In this document: in pieces, positions 1-64,000 of the stretch
Position numbering within the stretch: position 1 is the stretch's first letter
Layout of the letters: the number at the start of each line of letters is the position of its first letter
DNA from: Escherichia phage ph0011
Reading direction: 5' to 3' (one strand)
Sequence record: OP557969.1
Length of the DNA stretch: 64,000 bases
The notes under the pieces: model-generated
The model's input: only the letters and a program-made list of their open reading frames with translations
Databases searched by the model: none
What the model was told of the DNA's origin: nothing
Made by a program: the position numbers and the translations under genes

Positions 1-3278
<3,278 letters not shown>

Positions 3279-4495: not shown

Positions 4496-5614
4496 ATGAA
4501 AATGACAAGTGGTTTTGCAAACATTCTTAAAAACAGTACTGGTAGTGTTAAAAAGAATACTGGTGTTAGTGTTGGATTTCATGATCCAGATACATGGGTT
4601 AGTACTGGTAACTATGCACTAAATTACCGTATTAGTGGTTATTTTGACCGTGGTATCCCACTGGGTAAAGTAACTATGTTTGCTGGTGAATCAGGTAGTG
4701 GTAAATCTTTTATTGTATCCGGTAACATCGCACGTGAAGCTCAACAACAAGGTATTTTTGTTGTAATGATTGACACAGAGAATGCTTTGGATTCAGATTG
4801 GCTACAAGCTCTTGGTGTTGACACTTCTGAAGAAAAACTTCTTAAAGTTAATATGGGTATGATTGGTGATGTAGCCAAATTCACTTATGAATTTATTGAA
4901 GGATATCGCAAAGAGTACGAAAATACACCTAAAGATGAACGCCAAAAAGTATTGTTCATTATCGATTCGATTGGTATGCTTAATACTGAAGTATCTAATG
5001 ATCAAATGAAAGCTGGTAATCTTAAAGGTGATATGGGTCATAAACCTAAGCAGCTAAAAGCATATATTACTAACTGTGTGAATTCTATTGGTTCACTAAA
5101 TATCGGAATGGTTTGTGTGAACCATTCGTATGAATCACAGGATATGTTTAATCCAGATCCTAAAGTGTCTGGTGGTAGTGGTTTGATTTATGCATCATCA
5201 ATGGTGATTGCAATGGGTAAACTAAAACTAAAAGAAGATGAGGATGGTAATAAAACATCCGATGTGAGTGGTATTCGCTCCAAATGTAAAGTTATGAAAA
5301 CTCGTTATAATAAACCATTCGAGGAAGTTGAGATTAAGATTCCTTGGGATAAAGGTATGGACCCACGTAGTGGTCTACTAGATATGTTTGAAAAATACGG
5401 TCTAATCACTAAATCAGGTAACCGTCTATTGTATGTTGATATTGTAACTGGCGAACAGATTCTAAAATATCGCAAAGAGTGGATGCGTAATGAAGATTCA
5501 TGTCTTGATTTGGTAATGCATCAATTTAAAAATCATCCTTTGATTGAAGAAGTTAAAGAAGAAGAAAAAGGTGATGAAACTTTTGGTACTGATGTTGATA
5601 TTAGTGAGGAATAA
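4496..5614 (+). CDS. uvsX: UvsX recombinase (RecA-like)
   Basis: Walker A GESGSGKS, Walker B-like VLFIIDSIG, and C-terminal SGLLDM block matching T4 UvsX. Confidence 0.8.
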   Translation: MKMTSGFANILKNSTGSVKKNTGVSVGFHDPDTWVSTGNYALNYRISGYFDRGIPLGKVTMFAGESGSGKSFIVSGNIAREAQQQGIFVVMIDTENALDSDWLQALGVDTSEEKLLKVNMGMIGDVAKFTYEFIEGYRKEYENTPKDERQKVLFIIDSIGMLNTEVSNDQMKAGNLKGDMGHKPKQLKAYITNCVNSIGSLNIGMVCVNHSYESQDMFNPDPKVSGGSGLIYASSMVIAMGKLKLKEDEDGNKTSDVSGIRSKCKVMKTRYNKPFEEVEIKIPWDKGMDPRSGLLDMFEKYGLITKSGNRLLYVDIVTGEQILKYRKEWMRNEDSCLDLVMHQFKNHPLIEEVKEEEKGDETFGTDVDISEE

Positions 5615-6075
5615 TGAAACCTTGGCATTGGATTATCAAAGATGATAAATCTAAAATTATTGAAATGATTGAGTTCTTTAACAAAGAAATTGAAGAGGCT
5701 CGTCGTGAAGTAAAGAAGATTGGCATCATTGAAAAAATTGCTCAAGAGATTCCTGGCTGGCATGAGACGCGTCTAAGCCAGCTTCAAGAACTTGAAGCAG
5801 TATTGGAAATGTTAGAAATTGAAATGCGTCAGATACAAGCCGAGAAGTTCAAATACTTTCTCGAAGGATACCGCCGTGCACTATCTTCATCTGACTGTAA
5901 AAAGTATGTTGAAGGTGATAAAGATGTTTGTGAGTTAGCAGAACTTATAAACGAGGTATCTTATATAAGAAATACATATTCCAGTATTGTTAAATCCTTA
6001 GAGATGAAAGCTTTTCAGTTAAACAATATTGTGAGACTACGTGCCGCTGGTATCGAGGATGCACGTTTAGAATAA
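5614..6075 (+). CDS. Hypothetical coiled-coil protein (153 aa); possible recombination mediator by position only
   Basis: Start overlaps the uvsX stop (TAATG); no motif recognised. Confidence 0.5.
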   Translation: MKPWHWIIKDDKSKIIEMIEFFNKEIEEARREVKKIGIIEKIAQEIPGWHETRLSQLQELEAVLEMLEIEMRQIQAEKFKYFLEGYRRALSSSDCKKYVEGDKDVCELAELINEVSYIRNTYSSIVKSLEMKAFQLNNIVRLRAAGIEDARLE

Positions 6076-6959: not shown

Positions 6960-9539
6960 ATGAAAATTTGTAAGTTAACTTTATTGGATGAGGTGAATTG
7001 TAAATTTGAGGGACTAGATCCCTCAATTCGACAAAAGATGATTCGTGCAACTGAATATGTGCTACCATATGCAAAGTTTACACCAGCAGGTCGTATTGGG
7101 CGTTGGGATGGTAAAGTACAATTCATGAACTTAGGTGGAAGCACATACTTTCATATGCTTGATAAACTTTTACCTATTCTTGACGAAGCTAATATTGATA
7201 TTGAATTAGAAGATCATAGACTAAATTACGGTTTCGAATTTGAACCAATTGATGAAAATATTTTTAGCGATGTTGTTTTTGGTCCTGGACACCACATGGA
7301 AGGTAAAAGTATTATCCTACGTGAACATCAGGTAAATGCAGTAAATTCGTGTTTAGCTAACCCACATGGGTTGGTTCTGGCAGCAACTGGTGCAGGAAAA
7401 GCCCAGCCACTTGATGAACCAGTTCTTACCATTAATGGATGGAAACGAATGGGTGACATAAAAGTTGGCGATATAGTAAAATGTCCTGATGGAACAAATG
7501 CTCCCGTCCTTGGTGTATATCCACAGGGAATTAAACCAACAGTACGAATGACATTCTCGGATGGACGAAGTGTCGAATGTTGTGATGAACATTTATGGAA
7601 TATATATAGTATTGCTGGTGAAAAAAACCCTGAAAAACGATGGAGAAACCTTTCTGTTAAAGAAATCATTGAATTACAAAATAAACAAAAACGTCCAGTA
7701 TATATTAAAACAATCACTGGTGATATTTTTGAAGAAAAAGAATTACCAATACATCCATATATTTTAGGTGTATTACTCGGTGATGGATGTTTAAGAAATG
7801 GTAATATAATGTTATCAAGTTCAGATGAATTTGTTATTGATAAGGTATCTTCATTATTACCTGATGGTTATATTATCAAGAAAAAACAATCATCAAAATA
7901 TGATTATAGTATTGTCATGGATGATACAAAAAAGAAAGAATATTTATGTAAAAATAATAAAGAAAGATATAACGAACTTAGGGTTATTTTGGAAGAACTT
8001 GGAATTTATAATAAGTATTCATATGAAAAGTTTATCCCTGAAATTTACAAAATGTCATCAATTGAACAACGTCTGCAACTCATTCAAGGATTAATTGACA
8101 CGGATGGTTATGTTGATAAAAGATTAAAAAACGGAAAGTCCCGAAATGTGGTGGAATTTTGTAGTACATCAGAAAAATTGGTTGATGATTTGAAAGATAT
8201 AATGAATAGTTTAGGTGGTTACGGTATTAAAAAATCTAAACAAACTTATTATACCTATGCAGGGGTAAAACAAAAAGGTCGCCCAAGTTTTAAAATGAGA
8301 ATTGATTATAATAATCTTAATGCCTTGGCTAGTTTACCTCGCAAAAAAGACTTTTTATATTCAGAAAGAAATCGTGTTGAAAATAAACTAAAAATTGAAA
8401 AAATTGAATATATTGAAGATAAAGAATGTCAATGTATCTATATTGATCATCCAGAACATCTATATATTACCAGAGATTATATCGTAACACACAATACAAT
8501 TATTTGTGCTGCTTTGGCGAAATCGGTACAAAAATATGGACGTTCTGTTATCATTGTCCCCAGCACTGACCTAGTACAACAAACATATGATGATTACATT
8601 ATGTGTGGATTAGATGCTGGTATGTTCTATGGTGCACAGAAAGATTTTGGTCATCAACATACTATTACTACTTGGCAATCATTTAACTCTCTATGGAAGA
8701 AAACCAAAAAAGGTGAAATTGAATTAACAGAACAAGACGTAAATGATTTTATTGATGGGGTAGTTTGTGTTATAGTTGATGAGTGTCAAGGTGCTGGTGG
8801 TGATGCATTAGTTCAAGTACTATCTAAAGTTATGAACAACGTACCATTGCGTTGGGGTCTTACTGGTACAATTCCGAAAGATCCGGTTGTTGCAGCGAAA
8901 ATCAAATGTAATGTTGGTGATGTTATATATAAAATCACTGCAAAGGAATTACAAGATAAAAAGATACTAAGTACATGTAATGTGAATTGCATTAAACTAA
9001 AAAGTAGTATGAAGTTTGCATCATATGCTGAAGAGTTGAAATACTTAGTAACTGACAGAGATAGAATGGCATATGTAGCGTCATTGATATCTGCGTTATC
9101 TGAATCAGGAAACACTTTAGTTTTAGTAGATAGACTTGAAGCAGGTGAGTTGCTATGTGAATTTTTAGGCATTCCCAAATCAGAATTCGTTCGTGGAGAA
9201 ACTAAAAAGAAAGATCGAGAATCATCTTATGGTGAAATTCGTTGGGCTGATAATAAAATACTTATTGCGACATACGGCGTTGCCAGTACTGGTATCAGTA
9301 TTTCAAGGCTATACAATGTAGTATTGATTGAACCTGGAAAAAGTTTCGTAAGAACTATACAATCAATCGGACGTGGATTACGCCGTGCTGAAGACAAAGA
9401 CCATGTTGAAATATATGACATTAGTGGTTCTAATAAGTATAGTGCAAAGCATTTACGTGAGCGTCTCGCTTACTATAAGGAAGCACAATATCCTCATACA
9501 GTAATAGACGTTAAAGATTGGGAAAACACAGCGGGATAA
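6960..9539 (+). CDS. uvsW: UvsW-like SF2 helicase interrupted by an in-frame intein
   Basis: Extein motifs: Walker A ATGAGK|T split by the intein, DECQ box, GLTGT, QSIGRGLRR (motif VI). Confidence 0.7.
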   Translation: MKICKLTLLDEVNCKFEGLDPSIRQKMIRATEYVLPYAKFTPAGRIGRWDGKVQFMNLGGSTYFHMLDKLLPILDEANIDIELEDHRLNYGFEFEPIDENIFSDVVFGPGHHMEGKSIILREHQVNAVNSCLANPHGLVLAATGAGKAQPLDEPVLTINGWKRMGDIKVGDIVKCPDGTNAPVLGVYPQGIKPTVRMTFSDGRSVECCDEHLWNIYSIAGEKNPEKRWRNLSVKEIIELQNKQKRPVYIKTITGDIFEEKELPIHPYILGVLLGDGCLRNGNIMLSSSDEFVIDKVSSLLPDGYIIKKKQSSKYDYSIVMDDTKKKEYLCKNNKERYNELRVILEELGIYNKYSYEKFIPEIYKMSSIEQRLQLIQGLIDTDGYVDKRLKNGKSRNVVEFCSTSEKLVDDLKDIMNSLGGYGIKKSKQTYYTYAGVKQKGRPSFKMRIDYNNLNALASLPRKKDFLYSERNRVENKLKIEKIEYIEDKECQCIYIDHPEHLYITRDYIVTHNTIICAALAKSVQKYGRSVIIVPSTDLVQQTYDDYIMCGLDAGMFYGAQKDFGHQHTITTWQSFNSLWKKTKKGEIELTEQDVNDFIDGVVCVIVDECQGAGGDALVQVLSKVMNNVPLRWGLTGTIPKDPVVAAKIKCNVGDVIYKITAKELQDKKILSTCNVNCIKLKSSMKFASYAEELKYLVTDRDRMAYVASLISALSESGNTLVLVDRLEAGELLCEFLGIPKSEFVRGETKKKDRESSYGEIRWADNKILIATYGVASTGISISRLYNVVLIEPGKSFVRTIQSIGRGLRRAEDKDHVEIYDISGSNKYSAKHLRERLAYYKEAQYPHTVIDVKDWENTAG
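7401..8495 (+). mobile_element. Intein (365 aa) with LAGLIDADG homing-endonuclease domain inside the helicase P-loop
   Basis: Begins right after GAGK; LAGLIDADG-like LLGDGCL and LIDTDGYVD; ends IVTHN (N at 8493-8495) followed by extein T; length is a multiple of 3. Confidence 0.75.
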
Positions 9540-19089: not shown

Positions 19090-19760
19090 ATTACGAATAT
19101 GATCAACAATCCGTTAATCAGATGGCAGATTTATTAAGTGGTCTTAATGATATTGAAGCTGGTGAAACACATAATGCCGCAGGTGTTCCATATAAAGCAA
19201 GTGGTGATATTGGTGCAATGACTGCAATTTTAACTTCATTAAATGAAGCTGGAATGGATTACGGTACTGATCCAGAGAAGATTCATCCGAACGTTGTGCC
19301 ATACAATGCACCATTCAATGAACACATGAATGGACAACAATCTACCATTCAGCCATATAGTCAACCATCTAAGCCGAAAACTAATTGGAGCTTAGTAGAA
19401 GAAAAAGTTCAAGGAACTAAATCTACCAAAGTGTATAGTATCAAGTGTAATCATAGTTCACAGATTATTATGAATAATATTATGATGTATGAAGCTGCAC
19501 TTACATTAGTTAATCTTTTGAATGAAGGACGAATGTTGACAGATGCAAAACTCCTTGGTATAATTAGTTCTGGATTACAATACACAAATGTAATCAGTGA
19601 GGCATTAAAAGCTGCTCAAAGGCGACAACGTGTTCTTAATGAATCAAAGTATGATGAAGCAAAAGAATTAGATATAATTATTGCAGAAAAGAAAGCAGAA
19701 GCTTATAAATTGAAAGAGCGTGTATTGAACTTTCTTAAAAATGAAGGGTATATTACCTGA
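19086..19760 (+). CDS. Hypothetical protein (224 aa)
   Basis: ORF with ATGA overlap. Confidence 0.5.
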   Translation: MNYEYDQQSVNQMADLLSGLNDIEAGETHNAAGVPYKASGDIGAMTAILTSLNEAGMDYGTDPEKIHPNVVPYNAPFNEHMNGQQSTIQPYSQPSKPKTNWSLVEEKVQGTKSTKVYSIKCNHSSQIIMNNIMMYEAALTLVNLLNEGRMLTDAKLLGIISSGLQYTNVISEALKAAQRRQRVLNESKYDEAKELDIIIAEKKAEAYKLKERVLNFLKNEGYIT

Positions 19761-21508
19761 TGTTAGATGAATTGAAGAAATTCTTAAAAAGCAAAAACAA
19801 AAAAACATGGGTTAAGTTGGTAAACAATAATGAATTATATTTTAAATATGTTCGTGAATTGTTCCCAACTAAACCAATGAATGAAGCATTGTATCTTATC
19901 ATGAATGACATGGTGCGTGCACCATCTGCCCCATGTGGTTCTGAATGTAAATTTATTAATGGTTCATATGATAAGTATTGTTCTAAGCCTACAAAACCAA
20001 ACAAAAATCGTGATAATGGGTTTTGTGTAGTATGTAATGAGCATTGGAAGCAAAACAAACTCAAAAATACTAAACAAAAATGTCTTGATGTTTATGGTGT
20101 CGAACATCATTGGCAAAGAAATGATGTAAAAGATAAAATAAAAAGTACTAATATGAAACGATATGGTGTTGAACACAATTCACACGTCGAACATGTACTT
20201 GAAAAAAGAAAGGAAACTTTCATTGAAAGATATGGTGTTGAATCACCGTTATCATCTGTTGAAATTCGTGATAAGATAAAAGCAACAAACATTGCAAAAT
20301 ATGGTGTTGAAAATTATGGAAGTACATGTGAATGTATCGAAAAACGAAATAAAACAATGCAAGAATTATATGGTTTTAGTAATGCACAACATGTAAAGAA
20401 GTTTTCAAATGAATCAAAGATTACTAAATCTAAAATAAGATATGATAAAATTTTATCTATTATTAACCCTTCATATAAAGAACTGTTTGAATATGATGAC
20501 TTGATAGATTCAACCAATGAAAGTAAACTTCCGTACTATTGTGAAATACACAAAGGACTGTTTTATAGTAATTATAAATATGGTATAGTTTGTGATGTTT
20601 GCAACCCACCTGTATATAGTTCAATACAAAATGAAATAAAAAACTTTGTATCAACATTGACTGAATGTAACATTATCATGAATGATAGAAGTAATGGGTA
20701 TGAGTATGATATATACATCCCTGAACTTCAGATAGCAATAGAAGTCAATGGAATGTATTGGCATAAAAGTGATATGGTTGATAAGTATTACCATAGAACA
20801 AAAACAATAAATTCGATAGAACGTGGGATTAGATTGATACATATCTTTGAAGATGAATGGTACTGTAAACAGGAAATTATTAAAAATAGATTAATGAATG
20901 TTTTTCAGTGTTCTAGAAAGATTTATGCCAGAAAATGTATTGTTAAAAAAATTAACACTAATATTTGTTATGATTTCTTAAACACTAATCATATACAAGG
21001 ATATACTAAATCTGGAATAAACTATGGTTTGTTTTATAATCAAGAATTGATTGCAGTAATGACGTTCGGAAAAAGTCGATATGATAAAAAATTTGAATAT
21101 GAACTAATACGATACTGCTCACGTGGAACTGTTGTTGGTGGTGCTAGTAAATTATTGTCTGCATTTGAGCGTGAATACAAACCATTGTCGTTGATGAGTT
21201 ACGCTGACTTGAATTGGGGGTCAGGACAGTTATACATATCTCTTAACTTTGAAAATTTAGGATACACAGAACCCAAATATTTTTATTATGATCCAAAAAC
21301 AAAACAGCGTTTTTCTAGACATAAATTTAGAAAACATAAATTAATTGAAATGGGCTACGACTCATCTAAAACTGAAGAAGATATATGCTTAGGTGAAATT
21401 GGATTGTATAAAATATACGATTCTGGTAATTGCAAATTTGCTAAATATTATTACAACACAAACATTACAGGAGATATTGAAAAATGTCCAAATCGTACAA
21501 AAAACTAA
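19760..21508 (+). CDS. Putative free-standing homing-endonuclease-like protein: zinc ribbon, four tandem KYGVE repeats, endonuclease-like core, unknown C-terminal domain
   Basis: Repeats VYGVEHHW / KRYGVEHNSHVEHV / ERYGVESPLSSVEIRDKIKATN / AKYGVENYG; core YEYDIYIPELQIAIEVNGMYWH resembles a Vsr/DUF559-type PD-(D/E)xK motif; Cys cluster near N-terminus. Confidence 0.5.
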   Translation: MLDELKKFLKSKNKKTWVKLVNNNELYFKYVRELFPTKPMNEALYLIMNDMVRAPSAPCGSECKFINGSYDKYCSKPTKPNKNRDNGFCVVCNEHWKQNKLKNTKQKCLDVYGVEHHWQRNDVKDKIKSTNMKRYGVEHNSHVEHVLEKRKETFIERYGVESPLSSVEIRDKIKATNIAKYGVENYGSTCECIEKRNKTMQELYGFSNAQHVKKFSNESKITKSKIRYDKILSIINPSYKELFEYDDLIDSTNESKLPYYCEIHKGLFYSNYKYGIVCDVCNPPVYSSIQNEIKNFVSTLTECNIIMNDRSNGYEYDIYIPELQIAIEVNGMYWHKSDMVDKYYHRTKTINSIERGIRLIHIFEDEWYCKQEIIKNRLMNVFQCSRKIYARKCIVKKINTNICYDFLNTNHIQGYTKSGINYGLFYNQELIAVMTFGKSRYDKKFEYELIRYCSRGTVVGGASKLLSAFEREYKPLSLMSYADLNWGSGQLYISLNFENLGYTEPKYFYYDPKTKQRFSRHKFRKHKLIEMGYDSSKTEEDICLGEIGLYKIYDSGNCKFAKYYYNTNITGDIEKCPNRTKN

Positions 21509-63300: not shown

Positions 63301-64000
63301 ATGAAACCTATCCGAGTACTATCTCTTTTTAATGGAATGAGTGTAGGATACATGGCATTAAAAGATGCTGGTATCCCTGTTGAAAAATATTATTCATCCG
63401 AAATTGACAAATTTGCTATAGCTGAATCCCAAGCTAACTTCCCCGATATAATCCAATTGGGTGATGTAACTAAGTGGAGAGAATGGGATATTGAATGGGA
63501 CAAGATAGATCTACTGATGGGTGGTTTTCCATGCTTCCCAGCAGGAACTATGATAATGACAAATAAAGGTCATAAAGATATAAAAGATATAAAAATTGGT
63601 GATATGGTTCTTACACACACTGGACAGTACCAAAAAGTATTGAGTACTGGTGTTAAAAAGGCTCCCACTCGTATTATTACGGGTCAAGGTCACCTTCCAA
63701 TTGAATGTACCGATAATCATCCATTTTGGAGTAGGGAACGTCTAGCCAATAAATGGAATAATCAACGCCGAAGATATGATTCTGTGTTTTCTGAACCGCA
63801 ATGGGTAAATGCTATAGATCTTACTAAACAAAGTTATATTTGTAATGTTAAAAATATTACACATAATACTGTAAGTGATAAAGATGAAAAATATTGGTAT
63901 TTTGTTGGTCGTTTTATGGGTGATGGATGTGCTAGTGTATCTAATAACAAATACAGTATTACTATTGTAGATTCATTAGATAAAGTTGATGAATTGAAAA
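63301..64000 (+). CDS. DNA (cytosine-5) methyltransferase, N-terminal part, interrupted by an intein; 3'-truncated at window edge
   Basis: Motif I region VLSLFNGMSVGYMAL and motif IV GGFP-C parallel M.HhaI (FIDLFAGLGG ... ILCAGFPCQ); frame open to nt 64000. Confidence 0.6.
   Translation, partial: MKPIRVLSLFNGMSVGYMALKDAGIPVEKYYSSEIDKFAIAESQANFPDIIQLGDVTKWREWDIEWDKIDLLMGGFPCFPAGTMIMTNKGHKDIKDIKIGDMVLTHTGQYQKVLSTGVKKAPTRIITGQGHLPIECTDNHPFWSRERLANKWNNQRRRYDSVFSEPQWVNAIDLTKQSYICNVKNITHNTVSDKDEKYWYFVGRFMGDGCASVSNNKYSITIVDSLDKVDELK
63532..64000 (+). mobile_element. Intein N-terminal part with LAGLIDADG motif inserted at the methyltransferase Pro-Cys motif; continues beyond the window
   Basis: Begins CFPAGTMIMTNKGHKDIKDIKIGDMVL (intein block A-like); LAGLIDADG-like FVGRFMGDGC near 63900. 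Confidence 0.6.

Follow-up and report, generated by a model that had tools for sequence, protein, structure and literature searches.

Three features define class 3 inteins: the first residue is non-nucleophilic, Trp at block position B12, Cys at F4 and Thr at G5 co-vary as a triplet (WCT), and Ser or Thr stands at the +1 position (PMC2807308, PMC5050341). They are mostly found in ATPase P-loops, the bond between Lys and Thr being the 'classic' P-loop insertion point (PMC2807308, PMC5050341), and their prototype is the MP-Be DnaB intein of mycobacteriophage Bethlehem (PMC2807308). Here we describe an element in a 64,000-nucleotide (nt) stretch of Escherichia phage ph0011 (sequence record OP557969.1; the whole stretch is called the window, and coordinates are on the plus strand unless stated). 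The element, 365 amino acids (aa) long (A1...N365; 7401..8495), interrupts the Walker A motif of a UvsW-like superfamily 2 (SF2) helicase, whose precursor is encoded by one uninterrupted frame of 859 aa (6960..9539). It is very probably a full-length and apparently functional class 3 intein, with the class 3 splicing route and a homing endonuclease nested in its HINT splicing domain; the assignment draws on an exact 1095-nt insertion relative to 43 related phages, on homologous inteins and on the predicted fold.

The junctions of the insert (K/AQPL...VTHN/T, the slash marking the junction) are fixed, because intein-free orthologues carry the uninterrupted gene. A megablast search of 50,697 phage records returned 43 relatives, every one a jumbo phage of the Asteriusvirus type with E. 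coli, Salmonella or Klebsiella as its host (PBECO4, 121Q and UE-S1 among them). All 43 match in two pieces which together form a 1485-nt intein-free gene (2580 - 1095 = 1485), and none of the 43 covers the insert. In the protein alignment with PBECO4, 121Q and EC.P1, a single gap of 365 columns falls exactly between K147 and T513, that is, between the Lys and the Thr of the Walker A motif (GAGK/T); these orthologues read ATGAGK-TLITAALSK and their exteins are 94-95% identical to those of the window. The precursor reads LVLAATGAGK/AQPLDEPVLTINGW...RDYIVTHN/TIICAALAKS at its junctions (around the insert, ...HGLVLAATGAGK/AQPLDEPVLTINGWKRMGDIKVGD...ECQCIYIDHPEHLYITRDYIVTHN/TIICAALAKSVQ...), and at the DNA level the boundaries AAA/GCC...AAT/ACA, compared with AAA ACT in the empty allele, leave the insertion unable to slide. 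An earlier note on this DNA, made from the sequence alone, had placed the insert at 7401..8495, with Ala at position 1, a His-Asn end and Thr at +1, on the argument that the Walker A GAGKT had to be kept intact. The orthologue alignment confirms this placement, since the conserved ATGAGK-T is restored only by excising A1...N365, and excludes the other option given in that note, a junction one or two residues away. With its Pfam match, 872 homologous inteins and predicted fold, the insert is most unlikely to have arisen by chance.

The residues that define class 3 are all found in the insert. Block A (AQPLDEPVLTINGW, 7401..7442) begins with the non-nucleophilic Ala1 (codon GCC, 7401-7403). Block B (GRSVECCDEHLWNI, 7563..7604) includes His64 at B10 (7590-7592) and, two residues later, Trp66 at B12 (7596-7598; H64-L65-W66). 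Block F (CQCIYIDHPEHLYIT, 8427..8471) has Cys345 at F4 (8433-8435), the predicted initiating nucleophile, and block G (YIVTHN, 8478..8495) ends with Thr363 (G5), His364 (G6) and Asn365 (G7). The following residue, Thr+1 (codon ACA, 8496-8498), is the Walker A Thr. Across 120 homologous inteins (hosted by PhoH, DnaB, terminase, AAA+ proteins and other helicases) H64, C345, T363, H364 and N365 are invariant, residue 66 is Trp in 119 and Phe in one, and the +1 residue is Thr in 113 and Ser in seven. Ala stands at the intein start, as K/AQPL, in 115 of the 118 homologues aligned at the N-junction. At the level of sequence, the complete signature supports the proposal of the earlier note that Ala1 implies a non-canonical first splicing step. 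Its description of Ala1 as atypical stands relative to class 1 inteins and does not stand within this family, where Ala is the rule (the 115 of 118 homologues, and 38 of 39 UvsW-hosted alleles described below). The helicase of Proteus phage 10 (L004 2054..4636) has an intein of the same family with Leu1 (GKGK/LQPL).

One biochemically characterised relative is the prototype. The region of Bethlehem gp62 ('DnaB-like helicase') was tried as the location of the MP-Be intein and nothing was there; the intein called MP-Be 'DnaB' corresponds to gp11 residues 141-481, whose exteins (VSQDQ/P...N/TKNTF) match those published (PMC2807308). By blastp it is a full-length homologue of the ph0011 intein (E 4e-30, 25% identity over 372 columns), and its His65, Trp67, Cys320, Thr339, His340 and Asn341 align to H64, W66, C345, T363, H364 and N365. 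Both are phage-borne and share the HINT and LAGLIDADG domains, the WCT triplet, the B10 His, the His-Asn end and Thr+1. They differ in the first residue (Pro1 after Gln-1 in MP-Be, VSQDQ/PLALN; Ala1 after the P-loop GK here), in block B7 (Ser in MP-Be, Cys here) and in the host protein, gp11 being a 903-aa open reading frame (ORF) directly upstream of the portal gene.

Matches of known structure were found by phmmer against the PDB: DnaBi1 of M. smegmatis (6BS8), MchDnaB1 of M. chimaera (6RIX/6RIY), and gp41-1, including its WCT-grafted version 6RIZ. DnaBi1 and MchDnaB1 are class 3 inteins with the Cys(F4)-His(B10)-Thr(G5) triad and Trp at B12; their N-terminal HINT half is 32-35% identical to the one described here (rmsd about 1.4 A), Cys118 of DnaBi1 aligns with C345, and the N-extein of MchDnaB1 ends in GK ('SVGK'), as would be expected of a P-loop site of this kind. 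Unlike the ph0011 intein, they are mini-inteins of about 139-146 aa that lack the endonuclease, and their host is the bacterial DnaB, a hexameric helicase of RecA fold, not a phage SF2 helicase. The redox partner Cys48 of DnaBi1 is aligned with a Thr here; the ph0011 intein has the pair Cys60-Cys61 in block B. Outside UvsW hosts, the closest sequences (35-44% identity over the whole intein) are the inteins of phage PhoH, DnaB, terminase and other SF2 helicases, with metagenomic and jumbo-phage homologues among them (for example the Proteus phage 10 helicase, the PhiPA3 SNF2 helicase and the Klebsiella N1M2 terminase). These P-loop class 3 inteins share the GK/AQPL...VTHN/T or S junctions, the size and the LAGLIDADG domain, and differ in the host protein.

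The Pfam model LAGLIDADG_3 matches the insert alone with an E of 3.7e-12 (46.8 bits against a cutoff of 22.5), and the best stretch is intein residues 223-273, over the second LAGLIDADG motif and not the first. The first motif (YILGVLLGDGCL, 7758..7793) spans intein residues 120-131 with Asp128 and recurs in most full-length UvsW-hosted alleles; the second (LQLIQGLIDTDGYV, 8073..8114) spans residues 225-238 with Asp235, and its D/D/G residues are nearly invariant in the homologue alignment (A4). The AlphaFold2 model of the intein with eight extein residues on each side, made from a 54-sequence alignment, reached a mean pLDDT of 92.2 and a pTM of 0.91. In this model the HINT fold is recovered (Foldseek matches include 6bs8, 6rix, gp41-1 and PI-SceI), together with the features of a two-motif monomeric LAGLIDADG enzyme: one acidic residue per motif and a tandem alpha-beta-beta-alpha-beta-beta-alpha fold. 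The best full-length Foldseek matches in the PDB are the bifunctional inteins PI-SceI, TliVMA and PhoVMA (E down to 1.9e-17); on the HINT half, the class 3 DnaB mini-inteins superpose with an rmsd of 1.3-1.4 A over 69 residues at 32-35% identity, and the endonuclease domain matches I-DmoI and I-Tsp061I. As modelled, the architecture is thus that of a HINT domain into which a two-motif LAGLIDADG endonuclease is set. PI-SceI (yeast VMA1) and the Tli and Pho VMA inteins have the same arrangement of an interrupted HINT domain (TM about 0.6-0.69), with a sequence identity to the ph0011 intein of only about 15%. PI-SceI is a canonical class 1 intein, with Cys1 and Cys+1, and the crystal entries of the Tli and Pho VMA inteins are C1A variants.

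The host protein is a UvsW-like SF2 helicase encoded by a 2580-nt gene, with 494 aa once the intein is removed. The N-extein (6960..7400; helicase residues 1-147) ends in the Walker A GAGK and belongs to a protein to which the intein-free PBECO4 and 121Q helicases are 95% identical in amino acids; the C-extein (8496..9539) runs from Thr+1 to the helicase C-terminus and stop codon, and the Pfam matches (ResIII/DEAD and Helicase_C) lie only on this C-terminal side of the insert. The best solved match of the intein-free 121Q orthologue is T4 UvsW (PDB 2OCA; E 1.9e-24), in agreement with the host named in the earlier note; the two align nearly end to end (residues 39-459 against 37-457), SF2 motifs I-VI included, and in motif I the T4 sequence PTSAGRS/LIQALLAR stands opposite the 121Q-type ATGAGKT/LITAALSK. 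Directly upstream of the helicase gene are a RecA/UvsX-like gene (4496..5614, 372 aa) and uvsY (5614..6075), and after these comes a DnaQ-like exonuclease gene. The synteny is the same in the relatives, in which the gene is annotated as 'helicase (UvsW-like)'. The label UvsW-like is justified on sequence and gene order; branch migration and R-loop unwinding are the activities that a UvsW-type helicase would have. Nothing supports the two minus-strand ORFs that overlap this stretch (7328..7717, 7353..7592), which are products of mechanical ORF calling.

Searching with the intein alone recovered the 872 homologous inteins (best E 1.5e-78), whose matches, at most 44% identical and mostly in PhoH, missed the identical allele and the 54-79% identical alleles in UvsW, so that this search is uninformative on rarity. 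The UvsW-hosted alleles were recovered by searching with the full precursor. An identical protein (P0121) is encoded on an independent 348-kb ENA metagenome scaffold (L007), by a gene that differs by seven synonymous substitutions. Next come full-precursor matches whose whole proteins are 80, 70, 69 and 65% identical, and then many at 31-44%; the closest UvsW-hosted alleles (54-79% identity over the intein, 65-80% over the whole protein) have come only from metagenome assemblies. An intein occupies the same P-loop site in at least 39 metagenomic UvsW-like helicases, in forms that range from full-length to mini-intein. Ala1 is present in 38 of these 39 alleles, mostly as AQPL; the lone Cys1 allele (P0157, GAGK/CQPY) has nevertheless kept the full WCT triplet. 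All 39 keep the F4 Cys and T-H-N/T or S, and all except one (H-L-F) keep H-x-W. The intein is 339-378 aa long in 30 alleles, 189-255 aa in eight and 130 aa in one. Seven of the nine shortened inteins (P0149, P0150, P0162-P0164, P0178, P0181, P0182 and P0228; 130-255 aa) are 189-232 aa long and lack a recognisable first LAGLIDADG motif, the other two being P0181 (130 aa) and P0228 (255 aa). These shortened forms suggest erosion of the endonuclease towards mini-inteins, and the length range is the usual spectrum of invasion, endonuclease decay and mini-intein.

The L007 scaffold has an additional 535-aa gene (51..1658) directly upstream of uvsY, at the position of uvsX in the window, for which no alignment to the 372-aa RecA/UvsX-like protein of the window was obtained. 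Its reading as an intein-bearing UvsX was rejected, and it is an unrelated extra gene, another variable and probably mobile one. Because of this gene, the L007 scaffold is a close relative of the window genome and a different genome.

A second set of comparisons concerns selection and mobility. Between the window and the intein-bearing allele L006 (80% identical), dN/dS was approximately 0.06 in the N-terminal HINT half (HINT-N), 0.05 in the C-terminal half (HINT-C), 0.23 in the endonuclease domain and 0.07 in the C-extein; the intein and its carrier helicase are thus under purifying selection, and productive splicing is therefore implied. The GC content falls to 24-28% in the endonuclease domain, compared with about 34-37% in the flanking helicase. 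In an ungapped comparison with PBECO4, mismatches reach 19.3% within -306..+144 nt of the junction and 5.1% over the remainder of the gene (Fisher p = 2.9e-16), while the control pair PBECO4/EC.P1 is flat, with no peak at the junction (p = 0.11). The region of raised extein divergence, a putative co-conversion tract, comprises an upstream half (7095..7400) and a downstream half (8496..8639). The latter begins with TIICAALAKS (TIICAALAKSVQ), which is common to the intein-bearing P0122 and differs from the TLITAALSKK of the intein-free relatives. This flanking divergence is in keeping with homing from a more divergent donor, during which the flanks would have been co-converted. The divergence peak, the GC dip, the purifying selection and the sporadic distribution together fit a live mobile element. 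The nested endonuclease would most likely cleave intein-free uvsW alleles: during co-infection it would cut at the P-loop coding sequence (the insertion-site fragment of the intein-free PBECO4 and 121Q uvsW contains GCTACTGGTGCAGGTAAAACTCTCATTACTGCT), and homing would then copy the element into the cut allele. The dN/dS of 0.23 in the endonuclease domain, the sporadic distribution and the divergence peak speak for such cleavage indirectly.

The class 3 route is expected because Ala1 is incapable of the usual N-S or N-O acyl shift. By analogy with the intein family, Cys345 is predicted to be the obligate initiating nucleophile. Activated by the environment of His64 and Trp66 and by Thr363, it would attack the Lys147-Ala1 peptide bond and take over the N-extein as a branched thioester, known as the block F branched intermediate. 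From there the N-extein would move onto the Thr+1 side chain, forming the branched ester intermediate of block G, Asn365 would cyclise with the help of His364 and release the intein, and an O-N shift would yield a native peptide bond, remaking GAGKT in an active 494-aa helicase. The role of the block F Cys was probed by mutagenesis and trapping of intermediates in MP-Be (PMC2807308) and in Dra Snf2. The precursor, for its part, should be ATPase-dead, because 365 residues separate the Walker A Lys and Thr.

Several points weigh against a functional, mobile class 3 intein. Splicing, the thioester step at Cys345 and endonuclease activity are things we infer. Grafting WCT onto a class 1 intein gave no splicing (PMC7664689), so that activity does not follow from the triplet alone. 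The dS between the window and L006 is near saturation, which makes the dN/dS values approximate. The peak of divergence at the junction could reflect ordinary recombination and not homing, and L006, the closest intein-bearing allele recovered, was rejected as the donor: it is uniformly about 76% identical to the window (a uniform divergence of ~24%), with no mosaic pattern. The most serious rival is a decayed, non-splicing remnant, the helicase being dead or working with the insert retained. Intein pseudogenes are said to occur in phage-derived genes, and UvsW may be dispensable under laboratory conditions. We consider this rival very unlikely, since the frame is unbroken and no catalytic residue is missing, dN/dS is low between two intein-bearing alleles both in the HINT halves (0.05-0.06) and in the C-extein (0.07), and a near-identical gene differing only by the seven synonymous substitutions exists on the independent 348-kb scaffold; 365 aa placed between GK and T are, moreover, expected from P-loop structure to destroy ATP binding.

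Ala1 would also suit a class 2 (KlbA-type) intein, in which the +1 nucleophile attacks the N-terminal scissile bond directly and no block F intermediate is formed: the archaeal KlbA inteins likewise have Ala at position 1 (PMC2807308), with which an N-S acyl shift is impossible. Ala1 is the only feature in common. KlbA inteins, whose known orthologues are archaeal, lack WCT, and that of Mja has Asp147 at F4 and Cys+1 (PMC2807308), whereas the ph0011 intein and its family have Cys at F4, Trp at B12, Thr at G5 and Thr or Ser at +1. This, together with the full-length homology to the class 3 prototype MP-Be, makes class 2 a highly improbable assignment. There is hardly any chance that the junction is misplaced and that a canonical class 1 intein starts at a nearby Cys, Ser or Thr, a possibility put forward in the earlier note and in whose favour stands Thr143, five residues upstream of the junction (ATGAGK): the Walker A conserved in the orthologues (ATGAGK-T) is remade only by excision of A1...N365, the DNA boundaries cannot slide, and K/AQPL is kept across PhoH, DnaB, terminase, ClpA-like and SNF2 hosts, in each of which the P-loop ends in GK. 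Just as implausible is an element acting at the RNA level, namely a group I intron that encodes an endonuclease. Introns of this kind, with homing endonucleases, do occur in the replication genes of T4-like phages (PMC2988022); here, in contrast, the insert continues the frame of both exteins without a stop codon, the endonuclease is flanked by HINT blocks A, B, F and G, and the predicted fold is that of a bifunctional HINT and LAGLIDADG intein. A class 3 intein is thus by far the most probable reading of 7401..8495.

Four cysteines lie around the active site of this class 3 intein (C60, C61, C343 and C345) and may bear on redox or metal sensitivity. Cys60-Cys61 stand at B6-B7 (7578..7583), where Cys is found in 99 and 105, respectively, of the 120 homologues, B7 being normally Thr or Ser; Cys343 (8427..8429), two residues before C345, is Cys in 49 of the 120. 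We regard as improbable, if not quite as remote as the alternatives above, the idea that the intein serves as a conditional post-translational switch on UvsW and is not purely selfish. Under it, Cys60-Cys61 and Cys343 near Cys345 could form a reversible disulfide or a metal trap, similar to the trap of the class 3 DnaBi1 intein in M. smegmatis. If this were the case, UvsW activity, and with it the shift from origin- to recombination-dependent replication, would follow the redox state or the temperature in the infected cell.

A full-text search for UvsW together with intein found no intein in UvsW in the portions of the literature examined. The allele is undescribed but unsurprising: the mechanism was described in 2009-2010, and the P-loop Lys/Thr is a classic site. 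Its first value is to document a class 3 intein hosted by UvsW. The near-isogenic pairs formed by ph0011, with the intein, and PBECO4, 121Q or UE-S1, without it, offer a natural system for studying homing and co-conversion in jumbo phages, and the class 3 intein, being compact and intact and coming from an E. coli phage, could conveniently serve in E. coli as a splicing tool or as a mechanistic model. The locus is also a warning for annotation, as intein-bearing genes get split or mis-named. In Salmonella phage vB_SalM_SA002 (MN445183; L005 2058..4648), the intein-bearing SF2 helicase is annotated as two coding sequences, 'RAD2/SF2 helicase 1' and '2', with the frame break right at the junction between N-extein and intein; the break is due either to a sequencing frameshift or to real disruption of the gene, and because of it this helicase was left out as a continuous protein. 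In many further phage proteins with inteins the label is 'DarB-like antirestriction', 'terminase' or 'homing endonuclease'.

Other features of the window were observed as well. The window start cuts a second intein, of which the C-terminal part remains (1..480), in the large terminase gene, whose extein continues to 1854. Its end reads LIPTHN/TTVAAAF, the class 3 F4 Cys and G5 Thr are present, and it is 31% identical to residues 210-365 of the UvsW intein (E 4e-15). This terminase intein is also found in UE-S1 and JNE01, and is absent in 121Q, G17, Sharanji and others, in which the match starts at 477/478. A third intein is cut by the window end, its N-terminal part lying within 63301..64000 and starting at ~63532 in a C5 cytosine DNA methyltransferase gene. 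It reads ...DLLMGGFP/CFPAGTMIMTNKG...IECTDNHPFW...GRFMGDGC and, with Cys1 at the catalytic PC motif and a block B TxxH, looks like a class 1 intein. Among the relatives it is common only to UE-S1; among the listed relatives without it, the match stops at ~63533 in G17, CRJP21, Sharanji, slurp01, PBECO4 and UB, and extends somewhat further in TH47. Finally, the ORF at 19760..21508 (582 aa) has a DUF7487 match and a weak nuclease-like match to REase_MTES_1575; positions 20000-21483 are missing from most of the Asteriusvirus relatives and covered only in UE-S1, and this ORF is probably a free-standing mobile nuclease gene.

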